A DNA stretch of 24,037 bases from a virus. Within the stretch, counting starts at the first letter, position 1, and the number at the start of each line of letters is the position of its first letter. This document shows positions 3,989 to 22,585 of this stretch, in pieces. The position numbers and the translations under genes are program-made. The notes beneath the pieces were generated by a model. The model was not told where the DNA came from. It saw nothing but the letters and a program-made list of their open reading frames with translations, and did no database searches. The stretch lies in the UHGV virus genome UHGV-0103738. One strand, given 5' to 3'.

Positions 3989-4822
3989 ATGAATATTACA
4001 CAAGATAACTTAGATATTTTCACGGGGTCACATGTTGAAGTGTCGATCTCTAACCAGATAGACAATCAGGTCGACTTTTTCGATCCTAGCTTTAGTTCCA
4101 TCGAGAACGTTGCAGCATTTCCTACGCTAACCGAATCCACAGAGATAGAAACTCTGGAAGAGTACGATCAGGACGCTACGGGGAAACTTGCTGGTTATCG
4201 TAGACTGGAACCGACAACACTCACGTTAAACCGTGTTCTGGATGACGAACATCAAGCAATGTTGATGAAAGCGGTAGAGGATAAAACACCTTTACGCTTC
4301 CGTATGTTCTATGTTGTGAACTCTGGCTATAGTGCTGCTAACACTGGTTACTATGTCATCTATGATGCTTACGTCACATCACACAAAACCCGTGGTAGTG
4401 ATAACAAAGCTGTAACACTGGAATTTAAACTTGAACCAGATGGCGGGATTTTGGATCGCGGTATTGCAACGGAGGGTCGTCTTCTCCGTCGCGGGGATTA
4501 TGGCGTAGGTGCAGGTGTACATCCATTCACAGGTCCGATTGATAGTGATGCTTTAGCCGGAAACCGTTTCGTAACTTACAAGGGAACTGCTAGCGGTAAT
4601 CCATATTCAGCCGACACATCATTAATTCACCTTCAAGCTAATGAGCATGGCGCATGGCAATTAACCTGTAATACTTCTGGCGCACCACGTTTACGCGTCC
4701 GAAATATTCAGGAAAACGGTCGCTCTGAATGGATCAAGGTATATTCCACCAATGAGAAACCGACACCTAGCGAAATTGGCGCAGTGGCTAAGACTGACCG
4801 GATCGATTTCGGCGAATACTAA
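3989..4822 (+). CDS. Tail-tube-like paralogue with a C-terminal domain carrying a tail-fibre motif (277 aa)
   Basis: SD AAGGGGTAA. N-terminal ~150 aa align by eye with the 157-aa tail tube protein (DIFTG..., AAFPTLTESTEIETLEEY vs AGFPETGIERGTVEVKSF, LRFRMFYVV vs IQIKVEYYV). The C-terminus has KVYSTNEKPTPSEIGAVAKTD, matching KMYHEGDKPTPGEIGAYTKAE in the fibre gene. Confidence 0.6.
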   Translation: MNITQDNLDIFTGSHVEVSISNQIDNQVDFFDPSFSSIENVAAFPTLTESTEIETLEEYDQDATGKLAGYRRLEPTTLTLNRVLDDEHQAMLMKAVEDKTPLRFRMFYVVNSGYSAANTGYYVIYDAYVTSHKTRGSDNKAVTLEFKLEPDGGILDRGIATEGRLLRRGDYGVGAGVHPFTGPIDSDALAGNRFVTYKGTASGNPYSADTSLIHLQANEHGAWQLTCNTSGAPRLRVRNIQENGRSEWIKVYSTNEKPTPSEIGAVAKTDRIDFGEY

Positions 4823-4854: not shown

Positions 4855-4885
4855 GGGAGGTTAACGCCTCCCTTATTCCTGTTTT
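4855..4885 (+). terminator. Terminator-like hairpin after the tube-like paralogue
   Basis: Stem GGGAGG / CCTCCC with loop TTAACG, followed by a T-rich tract (TTATTCCTGTTTTA). Confidence 0.4.
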
Positions 4886-4901: not shown

Positions 4902-7900
4902 ATGCAGTCGATCCAATTTAAACGCACACAAACGGCTGGTAAAAAACCAACGCCGGAACAATTATCACAGGGCGAGATCGCCTTACAACTGGCGGACCAT
5001 GTGATTTACACCAAAGATAAAAATAATAACGTAGTCCAAATTAGTGTTTCTCCAGAAAAACACGCTGAACTGAATACGAAAGTAGACACCAACAAGGTCA
5101 ACACAGATAAAGTCATTTCAGCAAATAAAACCGAAGCCGCTAATAATCTGGCTACGGCTAAAGCTGAACTTAATCAGACTATCACTTCTACCCGTGATAC
5201 TCTCAATGCTTCAATCACTGCTGGCGATACCGCAGCCAACAAGCGAATTGATGCTTTGACTACCACAGTAGGTAACAATAAAACCGAAGCGGCTAACGCT
5301 CTGGCGGCTGCTAAGACTGAACTGAATCAGACTATTACTTCAACCCGCGATACTATCAACGCGACAATTAACAAGAACAAGACAGATATTAATGCGCGAG
5401 TTGATCAGACGAATACCAACGTTACCAACTTAACGAATACTGTCGCAGCAAATAAATCAGCAATAGAAAAGACGGTAGCGGATAATAAGAAAGATGCGGA
5501 CACGAAGATCACCAATCTTACTAGTACGGTCTCTGCGAATAAGACAGCCATTGAAAGAACTGTTGCAAATAACAAGGCCAGTGCCGATGCCGCAATTGCC
5601 GCAGCTAACCAGCGAATTGATTCTATTGAAGGTAGTGCCGATGCTGCTTACATCAAGAAGAATACCAATACTAAGCATGGTGGGTATCTGTTAAGCAAGA
5701 CAGCTAACTATTTGGAAGACCAGACAGCGAGAGATCTTAACTACTTTGGTGCTTTCCGTACCAATGGTCAAGATGGACTCATGGATCTAACTCTTAATGT
5801 TCCTCATTCTGCCGGTAAAGCGCACGGTCGCGGATTTACTTTCCGTTATGCGTCTGGTGGATCTCGTGTTGAAACCTATGGTTTTGATAGAGAAGGACAG
5901 AAGAACTTTAGCTATAAGATGTATCACGAAGGTGATAAGCCGACTCCTGGCGAGATTGGCGCATACACCAAAGCCGAAGTTGATAAGATGTTTGTTAAAA
6001 ACGTCGTTATGTCTGTTCCCAATTCTAGCGAAAACGTATCTGCATATTTCAAATTGGCAACCGCAACAATTCCACAAAACGGGCGTAGTGTGTTTTTCCG
6101 TATTCATGGTGGTAATGGTTACAACGTTACGGCATATGATCAGGTTGACGTAGTAGAAATTCTTCTGCGTAGTGGTAACGATAGACCTAAAGGTCTTAAC
6201 GTAATTGCATACCGTAGAAATACAAACAAAGATTTTGAGGTATTTGCTGTCAATACTTCCGGTGATAACTATGATATCTACGTGAAATATCAGCGTTATA
6301 CCGATAACGTTATTGTCGAATATGGGAAATCTGTTTATGTAAGTTTGACGGTTTATGATACGCCGGAAGCCACGTTAATTAAACCTTCCGTTGGTGTTAT
6401 CGGTGGTCGCAACGTAACTCTTTTTAATACTGAAAATAAACGTGGTGTGTTAAGTTTTGATGATAACACACAAAACAGCTATGACATTGTTCACTTGAGT
6501 AACGATAAAGGTACTGGACGGAAATATATTCGTAAATTCCGTAGCAACTATAACGAAATGGTTTGGCATGAAACCGTTCAGGGTGCTGTATATCGTCTTG
6601 CTACCGGTGCTACAGATTCTACAGAAGTTATTAGAATTGATTCTAATAGTGCAATACCGGGTAATTATAAAGGATATGTAATTACTGGTAAAATGGAATT
6701 GCACGGTAGTGGTAATGCGATGACTTTACATCGCCAGACTGGTCAAGCTGCATATATGGCGTGGTGGGATCGTCGTGATGGTAAAAACCAACGTAGTGGT
6801 TATATCGGTCATGCGGATGGTACTAGTGATGGTTTTGTGTGGCGTAATGATGTTGGTGCTAACTCATTTGATTTGGAAGGTAGTGGACAAGTAAATTTGA
6901 CTACAGGAAAAACAAAAATTGTATATACCAATGGTCAATATTATTCCGCTAACGCTGATGCATTCCGTATGATTTACGGTAAGTATGGTGCATTCTGGCG
7001 AAATGATGGTGGTAAAGTTTATCTGTTGTCTACTGCCGAAAATGATAGATTTGGTGGTTGGAACGGAAACCGACCATTCATTTACGATTTGACTAACGGT
7101 AAAGTTACTTTAGGTGGTGATGGTAACGAAGGCGCATTAGTTCTCGAAAGAGATAGCCGTGCTGCTCGATTTGCTGGCGATACATATATCGAGAAAGGGT
7201 TTTTAACCTTCTCTGCTGGGAGAAGCGGATCTCGTGATTATATTCGATTTAATCATTGGGGTGATAGTAATAATGCCCGTGATAACGTTTTGTACCTAGA
7301 AGATAGTCAAGGTAGACATTTTAGCACAGAGCGTGCGATGGGTACTGGTGCTCTTAAAGCAAACTTCTTAGGCGATCTTGAAGTTGGTGGTAAGTTTACT
7401 TGGGGTAAAAATACAGCTACATCCAGCTTTAATATTCGTGCTTGGGGTAACGATAGTCGTAAACAAGTATTAGAATGTGGTGATGAAAGTGGTTGGCATT
7501 GGTATACCCAACGTCCGGGCGGTCCGGGTACTACGGCAATTGAGTTTGCCATCAACGGTACTGTTAAGCCTCAAGCAATTCACACTGGCGGTAATATCAC
7601 GCTTAACGGTGCTGATATTGAATTTCGTCGCACTGGTAATAAGCATATCTGGTTTAGAGATCCAACTGGATTAGAACTAGGTTTGATGTATTCTGATGAT
7701 GCTGGTGTTATTCGCTTCCGTGGTCAGAAACAAGCCCAGACGTGGAAACTTGCGGATAAGATGATTCATCTTGAATCTGGTAGCGTCGGCGGATCTGATA
7801 AAGGTTTGATTCGTGGTAACGTTTCTGGTGGTAGCTGGTCTAGTTGGCGCGATCGTGCATCCGGCTTGCAAGTTGATTGCCCTCAATCAACCGATTCCGC

Positions 7901-8432
7901 TCATAACATCTGGAAAGCTACTCATTGGGGTAAATATCACATTGCAGCAATGGGTGTACACGTTCCTAGCGGTACTATCGGTAACGCTCTTGTTCGTCTG
8001 CATGTTAACGATACTAACTTTGACTTTAACGCTGCTGGTGACTTTACCGCAGGTCGTAACGGTAGCTTTAACGATGTTTACATTCGCTCTGACTCCCGTT
8101 TGAAGATTAACAAGGAAGAATTACAGGACGGTGCATTAGAGAAAGTAAACTCACTGAAAGTCTACACCTACGATAAAGTTAAATCTCTTTCCGATGACAC
8201 GGTGATTAAACGCGAAGTAGGTATTATTGCTCAGGATCTGGAAAAAGTATTGCCGGAAGCAGTAGGTATTCAATCCACCGAAGATCCAGAAAATCCAGAA
8301 GCAATCAAGACTATTTCTAACTCTGCTGTCAATGCTTTAATCATCAAGGCTATGCAGGAAATGGACGCCAAATATAAAGCACAGATCGAAGCATTACAGA
8401 AAGAAATTGCCGAACTGAAAGCAACTAAATAA
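4902..8432 (+). CDS. Side (L-shaped type) tail fibre with a C-terminal intramolecular chaperone / self-cleaving domain (1176 aa)
   Basis: SD GAGGTGA. N-terminal fibre-type motifs, a repeat-rich N/T/A shaft with 51-aa repeats, and a long Gly-rich beta region. The C-terminal ~114 aa begin RSDSRLKINKEE and end in a coiled coil, as in peptidase S74-type chaperone domains of phage fibres and endosialidases (Ser/Lys spacing S1063/K1068). Confidence 0.8.
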   Translation: MQSIQFKRTQTAGKKPTPEQLSQGEIALQLADHVIYTKDKNNNVVQISVSPEKHAELNTKVDTNKVNTDKVISANKTEAANNLATAKAELNQTITSTRDTLNASITAGDTAANKRIDALTTTVGNNKTEAANALAAAKTELNQTITSTRDTINATINKNKTDINARVDQTNTNVTNLTNTVAANKSAIEKTVADNKKDADTKITNLTSTVSANKTAIERTVANNKASADAAIAAANQRIDSIEGSADAAYIKKNTNTKHGGYLLSKTANYLEDQTARDLNYFGAFRTNGQDGLMDLTLNVPHSAGKAHGRGFTFRYASGGSRVETYGFDREGQKNFSYKMYHEGDKPTPGEIGAYTKAEVDKMFVKNVVMSVPNSSENVSAYFKLATATIPQNGRSVFFRIHGGNGYNVTAYDQVDVVEILLRSGNDRPKGLNVIAYRRNTNKDFEVFAVNTSGDNYDIYVKYQRYTDNVIVEYGKSVYVSLTVYDTPEATLIKPSVGVIGGRNVTLFNTENKRGVLSFDDNTQNSYDIVHLSNDKGTGRKYIRKFRSNYNEMVWHETVQGAVYRLATGATDSTEVIRIDSNSAIPGNYKGYVITGKMELHGSGNAMTLHRQTGQAAYMAWWDRRDGKNQRSGYIGHADGTSDGFVWRNDVGANSFDLEGSGQVNLTTGKTKIVYTNGQYYSANADAFRMIYGKYGAFWRNDGGKVYLLSTAENDRFGGWNGNRPFIYDLTNGKVTLGGDGNEGALVLERDSRAARFAGDTYIEKGFLTFSAGRSGSRDYIRFNHWGDSNNARDNVLYLEDSQGRHFSTERAMGTGALKANFLGDLEVGGKFTWGKNTATSSFNIRAWGNDSRKQVLECGDESGWHWYTQRPGGPGTTAIEFAINGTVKPQAIHTGGNITLNGADIEFRRTGNKHIWFRDPTGLELGLMYSDDAGVIRFRGQKQAQTWKLADKMIHLESGSVGGSDKGLIRGNVSGGSWSSWRDRASGLQVDCPQSTDSAHNIWKATHWGKYHIAAMGVHVPSGTIGNALVRLHVNDTNFDFNAAGDFTAGRNGSFNDVYIRSDSRLKINKEELQDGALEKVNSLKVYTYDKVKSLSDDTVIKREVGIIAQDLEKVLPEAVGIQSTEDPENPEAIKTISNSAVNALIIKAMQEMDAKYKAQIEALQKEIAELKATK
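5124..5429 (+). repeat. Two tandem 153-nt (51-codon) repeat units inside the fibre shaft
   Basis: AATAAAACCGAAGC(C/G)GCTAA...CTGAA(C/T)T(T/G)AATCAGACTAT(C/T)ACTTC recurs at 5124 and 5277. Protein units are NKTEAANNLATAKAELNQTITSTRDT... and NKTEAANALAAAKTELNQTITSTRDT... Confidence 0.7.
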
Positions 8433-8488
8433 TAAAAGTCGGGGGACTAGTTCCCCCGTAATAACAATTTTAATTAAGGGGTAATTCT

Positions 8489-8962
8489 ATGTCTCAGCAA
8501 TTCAAAGATATTTTTACTGGTGGTCTGGTAAGTCTGTTCTATCACGCCGATACCACTAACACCGACCTTGCCGATGAAGCATACGAAGAAATTAAAGAGT
8601 GTGCTGGTTTTCCTGAAACTGGTATCGAGCGCGGTACTGTAGAAGTTAAATCCTTCTCTTCTCAGTATAACCGTAAACTGGTAGGTAAACTGAACGTTCC
8701 TGATCTGACTCTGACCGTTAACTACATTCCTGGTGATGCGGTACATGAGAAGCTCATAAAGGCTGCCGAAGACGGTACGCGTATTCAAATCAAAGTTGAA
8801 TACTATGTTGACGCCGGAAAACAGACTGGTATTCGCACTGCTTTCAACGGCTTTATTTCTAAAGTTGCTATGAACGGTGGCGATGAAGAAGTGGTAACGA
8901 AAGAGTTTACCTTTGCTGTTGATGGTGCTCCGCTGAAACAGCAAATCTTCACTGCCGGATGA
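8489..8962 (+). CDS. Major tail tube protein (157 aa)
   Basis: SD AAGGGGTAA. Strongly biased highly-expressed codon usage. Lies upstream of the chaperone and tape-measure genes and is followed by a strong terminator. Stop is TGA at 8960-8962. Confidence 0.7.
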   Translation: MSQQFKDIFTGGLVSLFYHADTTNTDLADEAYEEIKECAGFPETGIERGTVEVKSFSSQYNRKLVGKLNVPDLTLTVNYIPGDAVHEKLIKAAEDGTRIQIKVEYYVDAGKQTGIRTAFNGFISKVAMNGGDEEVVTKEFTFAVDGAPLKQQIFTAG

Positions 8963-9085: not shown

Positions 9086-9093
9086 TAATTTTA

Positions 9094-9121
9094 AGCCCTG
9101 CCTTAATGGTGGGGCTTTTTT
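9094..9121 (+). terminator. Rho-independent terminator after the tail tube gene
   Basis: Stem AGCCCTGCC / GGTGGGGCT, loop TTAAT, then a T-run. Same stem as the terminator at 3226-3252. Confidence 0.75.
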
Positions 9122-9136
9122 ATTGGAGTAATCAAA

Positions 9137-9643
9137 ATGGCAAATGTCGTTAAAGTTCCTGGCTGGATCGGGTCATCTGCTGTATCGGTGACGGGTAAGC
9201 GATGGATGAAAGAAGCATTAACAGCTTTAAAAGTTCCGGCTCCGCGTAATATGTCGGCAATGGCTGGTCGTGGTATGGATACGGTTGTAGCTACTGCATC
9301 GTGGTCTACTTCATTGGGTAATAACTGGGGTGTAACTGCTTCAAACTATCCTGTTTCCGGTATGCAAAGCAAAGGATCTATGGAGAACCCCGAAAACGTG
9401 GGCGTAGGGCGTCTGGTTGGCGTTATCGTTGGTCAATTCAATGGCGGTACTCCTACTATGGCTGTATATCTCCAGAACGGTAGAGCGGGGAATATAACCG
9501 TTAATTTGGGTGGTGCTGCTGTCACTGTTCCTTATAACAGTATGCAAAGTGGTTTTCATTACTATTGGTTAAGCAATCCTCCGGCTGCTTTCCTTACCAA
9601 CATTAAGAAGACTGGCACTAAGCAGACTTTGAAAATCTCTTAA
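9137..9643 (+). CDS. Hypothetical tail-associated protein (168 aa, Gly/Ser/Thr/Asn-rich)
   Basis: ORF with upstream GGAG, located between the tube gene and the chaperone genes. Composition suggests a beta-rich structural protein. No specific motif recognised. Confidence 0.45.
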   Translation: MANVVKVPGWIGSSAVSVTGKRWMKEALTALKVPAPRNMSAMAGRGMDTVVATASWSTSLGNNWGVTASNYPVSGMQSKGSMENPENVGVGRLVGVIVGQFNGGTPTMAVYLQNGRAGNITVNLGGAAVTVPYNSMQSGFHYYWLSNPPAAFLTNIKKTGTKQTLKIS

Positions 9644-20856: not shown

Positions 20857-22536
20857 TTAAATTCCAAATTCTTGTAATGGACCTGGTATTTCTTCTTCTG
20901 GTTTCCAGTTCTTATCTGTCAGCATGTCTAAACATGGATGCAGAACAAGCCCGTTACTCTCCAGAATCTGCCTATCATTGATAGTCTTCAAATCAACGAA
21001 GATCCGGCCTTTCCTCGGTCCTCTTGAATTTTCTATTACAACTCTCTGGGTCTTGCCATCGATGTATTCCAGTACAAACAAGTTTTTGTACTTGTCAATC
21101 CTGCTACACCCGATCCGTTTTAGAGCTTGCTTAATCTTAAACCGGACCTTAATGCGATCCTCGTTGTAAACATCTTCTAAATCAAATTCTGCGAGCTTCT
21201 CCCAGCCTTGAGAGTCAACAGAATACATTTCCTCTTCTGCCATCTTAAGTTGATTGTAGAGTGTTTCACGCTCGCTATTGAGGGTAGTAATCTGATCGGC
21301 TAGCTCCTTCGTTGCTCCTGTCATAGCAGAAAGGGTAATCAGGTTATCAATCTTGCGTGATATTTCATCAATCTGTACTTTCAAAGCCGGAACCGGATTA
21401 GCCTTATCTTCAGCAATCCAGATTTTATCAGCCAGCAATTGCAATACAGCTTTCTCTAATTGGTCGCCGCGAAAACTCCAGTTTGTATGCACACATTCAA
21501 TACGACTAGAGCGCATTGCATCGCATGAATAACGATATTGGTTAGGCCGTCTGTTTGTTCCTTTCACCTTAACCATAGCGGAACCGCAATGTTCACATTT
21601 CAATAGACCAACACCACTAAGCAAGGGAATAGGTTTAGCTTCTTCTTTGTCTCCAAAGTTACATGCTCTAACACCAATGCTTTTCTTAAGGTGATAAAAC
21701 TCAGCGTCATCTAGCACACGAGGATAATAATCCTTTAACTCATACTTAACGCCATCTACAGAGATTTCCTTGATACCAATCAAAGCGCGGGTATGGAACA
21801 ACCTTTCAATCATTGCCCGTGACCAGTTTGAATGCCTCTTGTGACTTGCGGCTGGTGGTGGTGTGTATGTCGCGTTAAGGTGATCCAGTATCTCGGCGGT
21901 TGACCGTCCATTCCTGCGTAATTCCACAACTTCCTGAACAATAGGGAAGAAGACCGGATGAGGAAGCACATAACCAGATGTGGTATCAGTCCACCACATA
22001 TTCTTTCCAATTTCCTCGATTGCAACAGCCGGATTTTGTGGATTTTCTTGATGAGCTTTAATCTTAATCAGTGCGCTTGAGTTAGTACGATTGCGCTTAG
22101 TCTGGCTTTCCTCATTACCACGGATGAATAAAAGGATGGAGAACATCAGGTCCATCGGGTTAGCGGTAACAGTATCAAGCGAGTAGATCTTGTTATCCAT
22201 GCCAGTAACAATGGTTATCCCCCTACGGATGATTGAAAGGAATAACTCCTGTGCACTGACAATATCGGCACGGGATAAACGGTCCAAGTTTTCGATGAAT
22301 AGCCAGCTACCAACAGGAACGGATCTACCTATTGCATCAAGGAAACGAGATAGCGCCCCTGTTTTGGAGTTAGCACCCTTAAACGCAGATACACCCAGAT
22401 CCTGATAATCATTTACCAGTTCAAGGTCATACTTTACCGCAATCTCTCTAGCCATCCTGATTTGTCGTTCATAACTCGAACCATCATTCTGACGCATAGA
22501 CGAGAAGCGAATATACGAATACAGTTTAGTTTTCAT
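20857..22536 (-). CDS. Large serine recombinase (integrase/resolvase family, ~559 aa from ATG 22536)
   Basis: N-terminal catalytic motif YIRFSSMRQ (Arg/Ser/Gln spacing of serine recombinases) and ENLDRLSR. Central recombinase region. Cys cluster CEHCGSAMV...YRYSCDAM...ECVH (zinc-ribbon-like), then a coiled coil. Track start is a TTG at 22551; the first ATG is at 22536. Confidence 0.85.
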   Translation of the reverse strand: MKTKLYSYIRFSSMRQNDGSSYERQIRMAREIAVKYDLELVNDYQDLGVSAFKGANSKTGALSRFLDAIGRSVPVGSWLFIENLDRLSRADIVSAQELFLSIIRRGITIVTGMDNKIYSLDTVTANPMDLMFSILLFIRGNEESQTKRNRTNSSALIKIKAHQENPQNPAVAIEEIGKNMWWTDTTSGYVLPHPVFFPIVQEVVELRRNGRSTAEILDHLNATYTPPPAASHKRHSNWSRAMIERLFHTRALIGIKEISVDGVKYELKDYYPRVLDDAEFYHLKKSIGVRACNFGDKEEAKPIPLLSGVGLLKCEHCGSAMVKVKGTNRRPNQYRYSCDAMRSSRIECVHTNWSFRGDQLEKAVLQLLADKIWIAEDKANPVPALKVQIDEISRKIDNLITLSAMTGATKELADQITTLNSERETLYNQLKMAEEEMYSVDSQGWEKLAEFDLEDVYNEDRIKVRFKIKQALKRIGCSRIDKYKNLFVLEYIDGKTQRVVIENSRGPRKGRIFVDLKTINDRQILESNGLVLHPCLDMLTDKNWKPEEEIPGPLQEFGI

Positions 22537-22545
22537 ACCATTTCC

Positions 22546-22585
22546 AAACAAAAACGCCCCTACCGCGTATTATAACGATAGGGGC
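22546..22585 (-). terminator. Hairpin with T-run immediately upstream of the recombinase start (– strand)
   Basis: 10-bp stem whose one imperfect position is a G-U pair only in the – strand transcript, followed on the – strand by GTTTTTGTTT. The loop contains TTATAAT. Confidence 0.5.

Follow-up and report, generated by a model that had tools for sequence, protein, structure and literature searches.

The fibre gene and its neighbourhood

The window analysed here, i.e., the whole 24,037-nt stretch of UHGV virus genome UHGV-0103738, belongs to a temperate siphophage prophage of ~35 kb that is inserted in E. coli hicB and has a lambda-J-type tip. Its side tail fibre gene lies on the plus strand (4902..8432, with the stop codon at 8430-8432) and encodes a gp37-like precursor of 1176 aa and 128.9 kDa; a ribosome-binding site, GAGGTG, stands 5' of the ATG, and this start is identical to that in the RefSeq annotation of a homologous prophage. 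Residues 1-51 are similar to the gp37 N-terminus, residues 262-1173 are 76% identical over 912 residues to gp37 of Krischvirus RB49, and the protein matches phrog_1699 ('long tail fiber protein distal subunit') with an E-value of 1e-144. The fibre shaft contains a Gp34_trimer domain (PF21446; 6750..7085, plus strand, aa 617-728; E = 1e-36), a region that also yields PDB sequence matches to T4 gp34 (4uxe, 5nxf). A Pfam 'Apolipoprotein' match in the fibre was rejected: at 18.8 bits against a cut-off of 90, it reflects the repetitive helical N-terminal shaft. Also rejected was a GC-rich hairpin 3' of the fibre stop (8440-8458) as a terminator, its z-score being -1.3 against shuffles in context and the plus strand lacking a T-run.

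Two genes downstream of the fibre gene, with a tail tube gene between them and ~705 nt from fibre stop to adhesin start, lies a plus-strand gene for a Gp38-type adhesin of 168 aa (9137..9643). The RefSeq orthologues of the two proteins already carry the labels 'tail fiber domain-containing protein' and 'receptor recognizing protein Gp38', and an NCBIfam search with the fibre, the adhesin and the tail-tube paralogue returned zero matches. The window further encodes a J-like tip protein with its own receptor-binding domain, Ig_GpJ_C. When the whole window was searched against phage records, the fibre segment alone was matched, so that the phage backbone cannot be placed in any described genus; for the capsid, phage DCP80 gives the highest match, at 43%.

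The fibre ends in a predicted S74-type chaperone domain

A preliminary description of this DNA had placed an intramolecular chaperone domain of the peptidase S74 type on the last ~114 residues of the fibre, starting after the residues YIR. The domain occupies 8088..8429 on the plus strand (aa 1063-1176; 12.6 kDa, pI 4.96), exactly 114 residues following the R1062/S1063 junction, and an HMM search bore out its class: Pfam PF13884 (Peptidase_S74) matches aa 1063-1121 with an E-value of 8.2e-14 and 52.1 bits, against a gathering cut-off of 22, and fold and profile matches agree. It is the only S74 domain in the window. Searching the PDB with a family profile built from 23 homologues retrieved gp37 of Salmonella phage S16 (6f45_A, 2.1e-15), the ICA domain of MyRF (7dc3, 1.3e-8), a tail fibre (8jov, 5.8e-8) and the GA-1 chaperone (3gud, 0.009), and the SDxRxK motif of all four aligns to S1063-K1068. 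When an AlphaFold2 monomer model of aa 1043-1176 (pLDDT 82.5) was submitted to Foldseek, the top 11 PDB matches were all intramolecular chaperone domains (7dc3, 3gud, 3gw6), with probabilities of 0.99-1.00; solved domains of this kind combine an alpha/beta part with a long C-terminal helix. The TM-scores, 0.4-0.6, are low because a single chain was modelled.

MyRF ICA (7DC3), which ranks first by structure (E = 2e-5, TM 0.6), is a family member that trimerises and cleaves itself, but it is internal to a membrane-bound eukaryotic transcription factor and has an unrelated biological role. The chaperone domains of K1F endosialidase and GA-1 gp12 (3GW6 and 3GUD; MEROPS/Pfam S74) match in fold at a probability of 0.99-1.00; unlike the domain here, they are found on podophage tailspikes and neck appendages, and their sequence identity to it is only 13-22%. 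Self-cleavage is a property of K1F endosialidase as well as of MyRF. The structure of T5 pb1 is absent from the PDB sequence-search and Foldseek matches listed.

All computational tests run agree, establishing the identity and fold of the domain at the level of sequence and model and supporting the assignment of fibre aa 1063-1176 as a C-terminal intramolecular chaperone domain of the peptidase S74 type. The significance of the assignment comes from the domain match, since chance alone would often place a Lys five residues from a Ser. Domains of this type have been known since 2007-2010, and the present one is a standard, well-known device: a newcomer to a known system, and a routine annotation.

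The domain closes with a long helix (8319..8426, plus strand, aa 1140-1175) that is the predicted trimeric coiled-coil core of the chaperone. An ending in a coiled coil had been claimed beforehand, and of this the long helix stands as a prediction, with a pLDDT of 94-96 over most of its length and 85 at the last residues. The coiled-coil part is left with a moderate signal, in a model that is of a monomer only: 7 of the 11 strongly hydrophobic residues fall on the a/d positions of one heptad register, a count reached by 651 of 20000 shuffles. This stricter test was used in place of one that admitted alanine as a core residue, which 4446 of 5000 shuffles reached and which was uninformative. A central trimeric coiled coil in T5 pb1 would be the counterpart of the predicted helix core (PMC4690869).

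Across homologues, the domain lies at most 30 aa from the C-terminus in 142 of 150 remote homologues (the best 150 of 1137 representative clusters). It is kept in all six prophage copies, even where the preceding tip is just 12-40% identical, and it is under purifying selection (dN/dS of 0.13-0.26 in 7 pairwise comparisons). Such values speak against the possibility that the domain is a functionless relic in a decaying cryptic prophage, as might be supposed from the occurrence of the window in bacterial chromosomes and from a fibre that is highly mosaic. In addition, the fibre ORF is intact in 6/6 E. coli copies (1156-1179 aa), further fibre ORFs of ~1150-1200 aa are present in IMG/VR contigs of 33-38 kb, and in strain H2 (NZ_CP028733.1) the two halves of hicB flank a prophage whose gene set is complete, with terminase, portal, capsid, tail, lysis and recombinase genes all present; we therefore regard a relic as exceedingly improbable.

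A conserved Ser/Lys dyad at the predicted cleavage junction

The motif SDSRLK (aa 1063-1068) begins at nt 8088, nt 8085 being the first base of the R1062 codon, and the predicted scissile bond R1062-S1063 thus spans 8085..8090 on the plus strand. By homology with S16 gp37 and T5 pb1, Ser1063 (nt 8088-8090) is the predicted nucleophile, and conservation points to Lys1068 (8103..8105, plus strand) as the predicted general base of the dyad; the ORF translation has both residues, five apart, at the positions that the preliminary description had given. The dyad is conserved: S1063, D1064, L1067, K1068 and N1070 are invariant across 23 sequences, in which S1065 varies, and S....K is aligned in 144 of 145 remote representatives (among the best 150 of 1137 clusters). 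Directly before the predicted cleavage site lies the conserved segment GDFTAGRNGSFNDVYIR (8037..8087, plus strand, aa 1046-1062), the predicted mature C-terminal end and a candidate docking end for the adhesin, whose VYIR is invariant in 54 fibres of 48 loci.

The fibre junction, NDVYIR^SDSRLKI, aligns with DLNVS^SDRRIKK of S16 gp37 and DVYIR^SDGRLKI of the fPS phages; PMC7917993 reports the former as the S16 gp37 cleavage site and aligns the latter to it. In T5 pb1, cleavage takes place between Thr1263 and Ser1264, the substitution S1264A blocks autoproteolysis, Lys1269 activates the Ser, and fibre that stays uncleaved shows no activity in competition assays (PMC4690869). For T5 (Arg1250) and K1F, a 'folding sensor' Arg from the neighbouring chain has been described that completes the active site, and the candidates for it here are R1052, which is not conserved, and R1062, which is invariant within the VYIR subgroup. 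From these homologies, we infer that the domain acts as a chaperone and that autocleavage would occur at R1062-S1063.

Because active-site competence is beyond the reach of a monomer model, an S74-like domain could in principle stay uncleaved and persist in virions, where it would serve permanently for trimerisation or as a knob. We consider this highly unlikely: the catalytic Ser and Lys are both intact and invariant, the characterised T5 pb1 and S16 gp37 self-cleave, the GA-1 chaperone (3gud) crystallised as a released fragment starting with SDERHK at the aligned Ser, and a T5 fibre that retains the domain is the form found inactive (PMC4690869).

Genomic linkage of the fibre to a Gp38-type adhesin

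The adhesin carries a Gp38_N attachment domain (PF21721; 9152-9265, plus strand, aa 6-43; E = 3.9e-15, 56 bits against a cut-off of 25) in which Trp10 and Trp23 are invariant, and over aa 3-49 it is 51% identical to Gp38 of fPS-2. Gp38_N is its sole Pfam match, with none to PF05268 (glycine-rich motifs/polyglycine sandwich), and its full-length alignments are confined to short 'Gp38' proteins, those of Stx phages at 45-48% and of PEi20-like myophages at 35%; these features indicate a Gp38_N-bearing adhesin with a body of another type than that of canonical Gp38. A phmmer search of the PDB with the adhesin gave nothing meaningful, S16 Gp38 included, and an AlphaFold2 model from a shallow alignment of 8 sequences was unusable (pLDDT 36.8).

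The genomic association of Gp38_N adhesins with such fibres is strict. At 48/48 IMG/VR loci with a Gp38_N gene, which are not independent in that ~23 come from this one prophage family, an ORF upstream of it on its strand has an S74 domain at its end, always with the VYIR^SD junction. The two genes are ~700 nt apart in this prophage family; in most of the other loci, the spacing is 5-72 nt. Given this association and the parallel of S16, cleavage at R1062/S1063 most likely exposes an end to which the adhesin docks, and in a gp37-type distal fibre with a Gp38-type gene downstream, two features that the preliminary description had not recognised, the end at residue 1062 is probably a docking site and not the receptor-binding tip itself.

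The fibre could instead have a true self-cleaving chaperone and a processed tip that binds the receptor, as in T5 pb1, which functions without a cap (PMC4690869), with the Gp38_N protein attached elsewhere or serving only as an assembly factor. Several observations would suit this arrangement: the tail tube gene separates the adhesin gene from the fibre gene, the adhesin is without the canonical Gp38 body, and no co-variation between its N-terminal variants and the fibre tip variants is visible among the six prophage copies. We nevertheless judge it unlikely, on account of the 48/48 loci with their shared junction. Moreover, the window has no second fibre with an S74 domain to which the adhesin might belong, the J-like tip protein already has Ig_GpJ_C, and the closest gp37 relatives (Krischvirus, fPS and T2-type) are all adhesin-capped (PMC7917993; PMC3157838; PMC12032242), the Krischvirus phages, from which the closest gp37 comes, using Gp38 adhesins (PMC12032242; PMC3157838).

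A proposed route to the mature fibre tip

Taken as one explanation, a self-cleaving chaperone together with a mature fibre end that docks a Gp38-type adhesin very probably accounts for the locus. Three chaperone domains would associate via their long C-terminal helices and act as a template on which the tip immediately before them trimerises and folds. Correct folding of the tip would be followed by cleavage: Ser1063, with Lys1068 as its activator, would cut the R1062-S1063 bond in each chain, and the 12.6-kDa chaperone fragment would be released and be absent from the virion. The mature fibre would then consist of aa 1-1062 (116.3 kDa per chain), ending in GRNGSFNDVYIR. By analogy with S16 and T2-type phages, this new end would receive the adhesin encoded at 9137..9643, and that adhesin would be the actual receptor-binding cap. 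Removal of the chaperone thus probably clears the fibre end, so that a small cap protein that binds the receptor could dock there.

Comparison with known systems

S16 gp37 (PDB 6F45) offers a close parallel, in that a chaperone domain of 113-114 aa with an SDxRxK motif likewise ends a gp37-type distal fibre; its autocleavage is reported to expose a docking surface for a Gp38_N protein with two conserved Trp (PMC7917993), which is what we propose here. The two systems differ at the junction (DLNVS^S versus NDVYIR^S) and in the tips upstream of the domain, which are without detectable similarity. They also differ in the adhesin, S16 Gp38 being reported to have a beta-helix and a polyglycine sandwich, whereas the 168-aa protein matches Gp38_N only. 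S16 is a virulent myovirus in which g37 and g38 are adjacent, in contrast to the temperate siphophage with its intervening tail tube gene.

At the nucleotide level, gp37 of the Krischvirus phages RB49, Phi1, JSE and ELT4 is closest, with 77-89% identity to the fibre that extends through the chaperone domain to aa 1154. The Krischvirus junction, GSFNDVYIR^SDARLKINKEE, is the same as that found here, and the RB49 adhesin gene is also non-adjacent (PMC3157838). Krischvirus phages are, however, myoviruses of 164 kb, and the fibre differs from theirs in an unrelated stretch at aa 52-261 and in the last ~22 residues of the coiled coil.

T5 pb1 resembles the fibre as a siphophage side fibre with a C-terminal self-cleaving domain, which is predicted in our case, and with a Ser and a Lys five apart (S1264/K1269), but its domain is 133 aa long and its mature tip contacts O-antigen itself, with no cap protein in between (PMC4690869). 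In Stx2 phage P13374, ORF65 encodes a fibre with an S74 end (GSFNDVQIR^SDKRNK), reported to contain collagen repeats (PMC4122784), and is followed by ORF66, a 'receptor recognizing protein Gp38' of 170 aa that is 48% identical to the adhesin here. Differing from our prophage, P13374 is a podophage with a fibre of 680 aa, adjacent genes and VQIR in place of VYIR at the junction.

Implications for receptor binding and host range

In its broadest form, the proposal is that the two-step tip assembly of the T2/S16 type extends to Stx podophages and to a temperate siphophage of the lambda-J type, in which it would act on the side fibre, that an end in VYIR-COOH is a portable, universal docking end for a monomeric Gp38_N adhesin, and that the 168-aa adhesin presents a structurally new receptor-binding body; in this form, it seems to us evenly balanced between holding and failing. 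The invariant VYIR^SD junction beside Gp38_N adhesins provides a simple, testable marker of a two-component tip, and the placement of the mature fibre end at R1062, although predicted, is needed by anyone expressing or engineering the fibre.

A fibre module at ~80% nucleotide identity is common to virulent Krischvirus myophages and a temperate siphophage, and this sharing illustrates that receptor-binding modules travel as a unit with their built-in chaperone. The prophage family occurs in ~1% of complete E. coli genomes, and its probable host-range determinant would be the 168-aa adhesin, and not the fibre tip.

The side fibre ends in an S74-type chaperone domain

The side-fibre gene (4902..8432, + strand; stop codon 8430-8432) is a single long ORF of the window, encoding 1176 aa and preceded a few bases 5' of its ATG by GAGGTG, a ribosome-binding site. 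Translation of this ORF bore out the coordinates, residue numbers and sequence quoted in the preliminary description: SDSRLK starts at aa 1063 (nt 8088) and has its Lys at aa 1068, the codon for R1062 starts at nt 8085, and exactly 114 residues follow the R1062/S1063 junction. Because Ser-Lys pairs at a spacing of five residues are frequent by chance, the motif by itself is no proof, and the case is carried by domain-level evidence.

Residues 1063-1121 match Peptidase_S74 in Pfam (PF13884, 'chaperone of endosialidase'; E 8.2e-14, 52.1 bits against a gathering score of 22). A profile built from an alignment of 23 homologues returned four relevant PDB matches: S16 gp37 (E 2.1e-15), the eukaryotic MyRF ICA domain (7dc3, E 1.3e-8), the phage tail fibre 8jov (E 5.8e-8), and the released chaperone of phage GA-1 gp12 (3gud, E 0.009), whose crystallised fragment begins at the aligned SDERHK. 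In a PDB search, the last 176 aa of the fibre alone match the S16 gp37 distal tip construct 6f45_A, with SDSRLK aligned to SDRRIK. The AlphaFold2 model of aa 1043-1176 (mean pLDDT 82.5) has a small alpha/beta part followed by a single long helix (aa 1140-1175). Compared with the PDB by Foldseek, it finds intramolecular chaperone domains (7dc3, 3gud, 3gw6; probability 0.99-1.00) in each of the top 11 places, after which the next match falls to E 0.5. The Pfam score, the profile matches and the Foldseek ranking all support the S74-type chaperone initially proposed from the sequence. The heptad signal of the terminal helix is moderate (equalled in 651 of 20000 shuffles), and a coiled coil is plausible here, in line with the architecture of T5, in which a coiled coil runs through the centre of the pb1 chaperone trimer and beta-hairpins embrace the tip (PMC4690869). 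The gp37-type fibre ends in a textbook peptidase-S74 intramolecular chaperone domain, ordinary in kind, whose identity is established by computation.

Conservation of the predicted cleavage site

S1063, D1064, L1067, K1068 and N1070 are invariant among the 23 aligned homologues and, since the second serine (S1065) varies, S1063 would be the nucleophile. Exhaustive searching of 1.84 billion cluster representatives with phmmer yielded 1137 relatives at E <= 0.001; among the best 150 of these, in proteins of 60 to 2517 aa, the match lies no more than 30 aa from the C-terminus in 142, and Ser and Lys align to positions 1063 and 1068 in 144 of 145. One relative among these best 150 representative clusters has Cys for the nucleophile Ser (C....K), perhaps a thiol form of the self-cleaving dyad.

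In T5 pb1, a kink at the residue preceding the Ser puts its hydroxyl beside the Lys amine, an Arg of the neighbouring chain acts as a sensor of correct folding, and a Ser-to-Ala change blocks cleavage, leaving an uncleaved protein that is inactive in competition (PMC4690869). That the S74 domain of the present fibre is instead kept uncleaved is quite improbable, given that the Ser/Lys dyad is intact and that the characterised relatives considered here are all cleaved.

Over the 114 codons of the domain, dN/dS was 0.13-0.26 in pairwise comparisons with five prophage copies, RB49 and fPS-2, so the domain is under purifying selection, though on the proposed model it would never be in the virion. 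Such selection, together with intact ORFs, makes it highly implausible that the region is a decaying relic.

A Gp38-type adhesin gene is linked to the fibre gene

Two genes downstream of the fibre, a 168-aa ORF (9137..9643, + strand) carries a Gp38_N domain (PF21721) at aa 6-43 (E 3.9e-15, 56 bits against a Pfam cut-off of 25) and matches phrog_1121 'tail fiber adhesin' (E 1.7e-34). Over its first 50 residues the protein shares 51% identity with the Gp38 of fPS-2, a T2-like phage; neither Trp10 nor Trp23 varies, and RefSeq labels the orthologues in two E. coli genomes 'receptor recognizing protein Gp38'. There was no match to PF05268, and the protein thus lacks the glycine-rich (polyglycine) body of canonical Gp38; its C-terminal ~120 aa matched no Pfam family, and its AF2 model has a pLDDT of 36.8. 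Full-length relatives are confined to the short 'Gp38' proteins of two groups, Stx2 phages (45-48%, closest in those of E. coli O104:H4) and PEi20-like myophages (about 35%). P0016, a 303-aa E. coli protein (PF13884 + PF05268 + PF21721), is a chimera of, in order, a Gp38 N-terminal domain, a glycine-rich body, a fibre-tip segment and an entire S74 domain; either recombination or an artefact of gene calling could explain it.

We surveyed 48 IMG/VR loci, picked for encoding a Gp38_N relative, by screening the ORFs of each with an HMM of the alignment's chaperone region. An upstream same-strand ORF ending in the chaperone domain was present in 48/48, about 23 of which are copies of the window's own prophage family, and VYIR directly precedes the Ser in all 54 chaperone-ended fibres of these loci, as against only 50 of 145 remote S74 representatives (from the best 150 of the 1137 relatives). 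VYIR^SD (^, predicted cut) would therefore mark a subgroup associated with Gp38_N adhesins; the junction reads NDVYIR^SDSRLKI in the window and DVYIR^SDGRLKI in fPS phages (PMC7917993), whereas Stx2 phage P13374 has the same fibre-adhesin pairing but a VQIR junction. From fibre stop to adhesin start the distance is 5-72 nt in most other contig types (T4-like of 170-180 kb, about 100 kb, and others of 30-44 kb) and about 700 nt in the window's prophage family, where the tail tube gene lies between. Six of the loci (L045, L051, L052, L053, L055 and L056; 144-180 kb) have two tandem fibre genes before a single Gp38_N adhesin gene, each fibre with its own terminal S74 domain and VYIR^SD.

The last 113 residues of S16 gp37 are autocleaved at DLNVS^SDRRIKK following trimerisation, baring a docking surface that receives the Trp residues of the Gp38 attachment domain (PMC7917993). 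Krischvirus phages also use Gp38 adhesins (PMC12032242), and RB49 has its adhesin gene away from gene 37 (PMC3157838). By homology, we infer that three fibre chains would fold on their own chaperone domains, that S1063 and K1068 would cut R1062|S1063, that an acidic 12.6-kDa fragment would depart while a 116.3 kDa chain stays, and that the 168-aa adhesin would then cap the ...NDVYIR end. A fibre that is cleaved and left without a cap, as in T5, would suit the atypical body of the adhesin and the non-adjacency of its gene to the fibre gene; the fibre-adhesin linkage in every surveyed locus speaks against this, and we regard it as unlikely. Capping by the adhesin is thus the reading we prefer.

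A gp37-like module in a temperate siphophage

The window outside the fibre gene had no megablast match among 50,697 phage records, and the window corresponds to no known phage record; the best match of its major capsid protein, to phage DCP80, reaches 43% identity. Matches to the window occur in 62 of 5426 complete E. coli genomes and, in 21 of these, cover 80% or more of it. The copy in strain H2 is part of a prophage of about 35 kb that splits the antitoxin gene hicB (halves at 583-894 and 36059-36178 of L002, the H2 prophage locus in NZ_CP028733.1) and encodes terminase, portal, capsid, tail and lysis genes and a large recombinase (564-aa ORF at 20857-22551, - strand; RefSeq 'recombinase family protein', 559 aa as annotated in the H2 copy). 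The tail module runs from a 277-aa tail-tube paralogue (3989-4822, + strand) through the fibre, a 157-aa tail tube protein (8489-8962, + strand), the 168-aa ORF, two chaperone-like ORFs, an 810-aa tape measure protein and distal tail proteins to a 1258-aa J-like tip protein with an Ig_GpJ_C domain. This gene content and the prophage context identify the fibre as the side fibre of a temperate siphophage.

The position of the fibre gene between two tail-tube paralogues (30% identity over 162 aa, E 8e-17) is an unusual site for a side-fibre gene. In the 277-aa protein, ~115 additional C-terminal aa form a domain that ends WIKVYSTNEKPTPSEIGAV and is similar to fibre aa 318-359 (E 4e-4); the protein might be a tube variant that anchors the fibre. 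The fibre gene has a GC-rich hairpin on either side (4855-4872 upstream, 8440-8458 downstream), and a strong terminator-like hairpin with a T-run (9093-9117) lies 3' of the tail tube gene, directly before the adhesin gene; terminator-like sites are twice as many as in shuffles (9 vs 4.0).

Positions 5685-8363 (+) are 77-89% identical in nucleotides to gene 37 of Krischvirus phages (RB49, Phi1, JSE, ELT4), and fibre aa 262-1173 are 76% identical to aa 71-977 of RB49 gp37; aa 1-51 resemble the gp37 N-terminus, and aa 617-728 form a Gp34_trimer domain. The N-terminal shaft (aa about 66-245) is unrelated to RB49 gp37 and differs among prophage copies. In translation, the shaft (5100-5640) contains near-duplicate helical segments (NKTEAANNLATAKAELNQTITSTRDTLNASI with NKTEAANALAAAKTELNQTITSTRDTINATI, for example, and TNLTNTVAANKSAIEKTVADNKKDAD with TNLTSTVSANKTAIERTVANNKASAD), which account for a weak Apolipoprotein match.

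Comparison of six E. coli prophage copies shows a mosaic fibre with blocks 12-100% identical, yet all six retain the chaperone domain and the preceding segment GDFxAGRNGxFNDVYIR, even the copy in VTB96775v, the rest of whose fibre tip is unrelated. The putative coiled-coil end (8364-8429; aa about 1155-1176) occurs in two versions among the copies, DAKYKAQIEALQKEIAELKATK and TAKFEAMSKELAETKAELAELKATK, of which the second has 3 additional aa, such that mosaicism extends into the chaperone domain itself. As only the gene-37-like stretch is matched in phage records, the receptor-binding module looks to have been exchanged fairly recently between virulent and temperate phages.

Fibre and adhesin are best filed under the gp37-Gp38 system of S16, T2 and Krischvirus, as a new member carried by a temperate siphophage, and are of modest interest for a module common to virulent myophages and a prophage, for the invariant VYIR^SD junction, and for a short, non-canonical adhesin.
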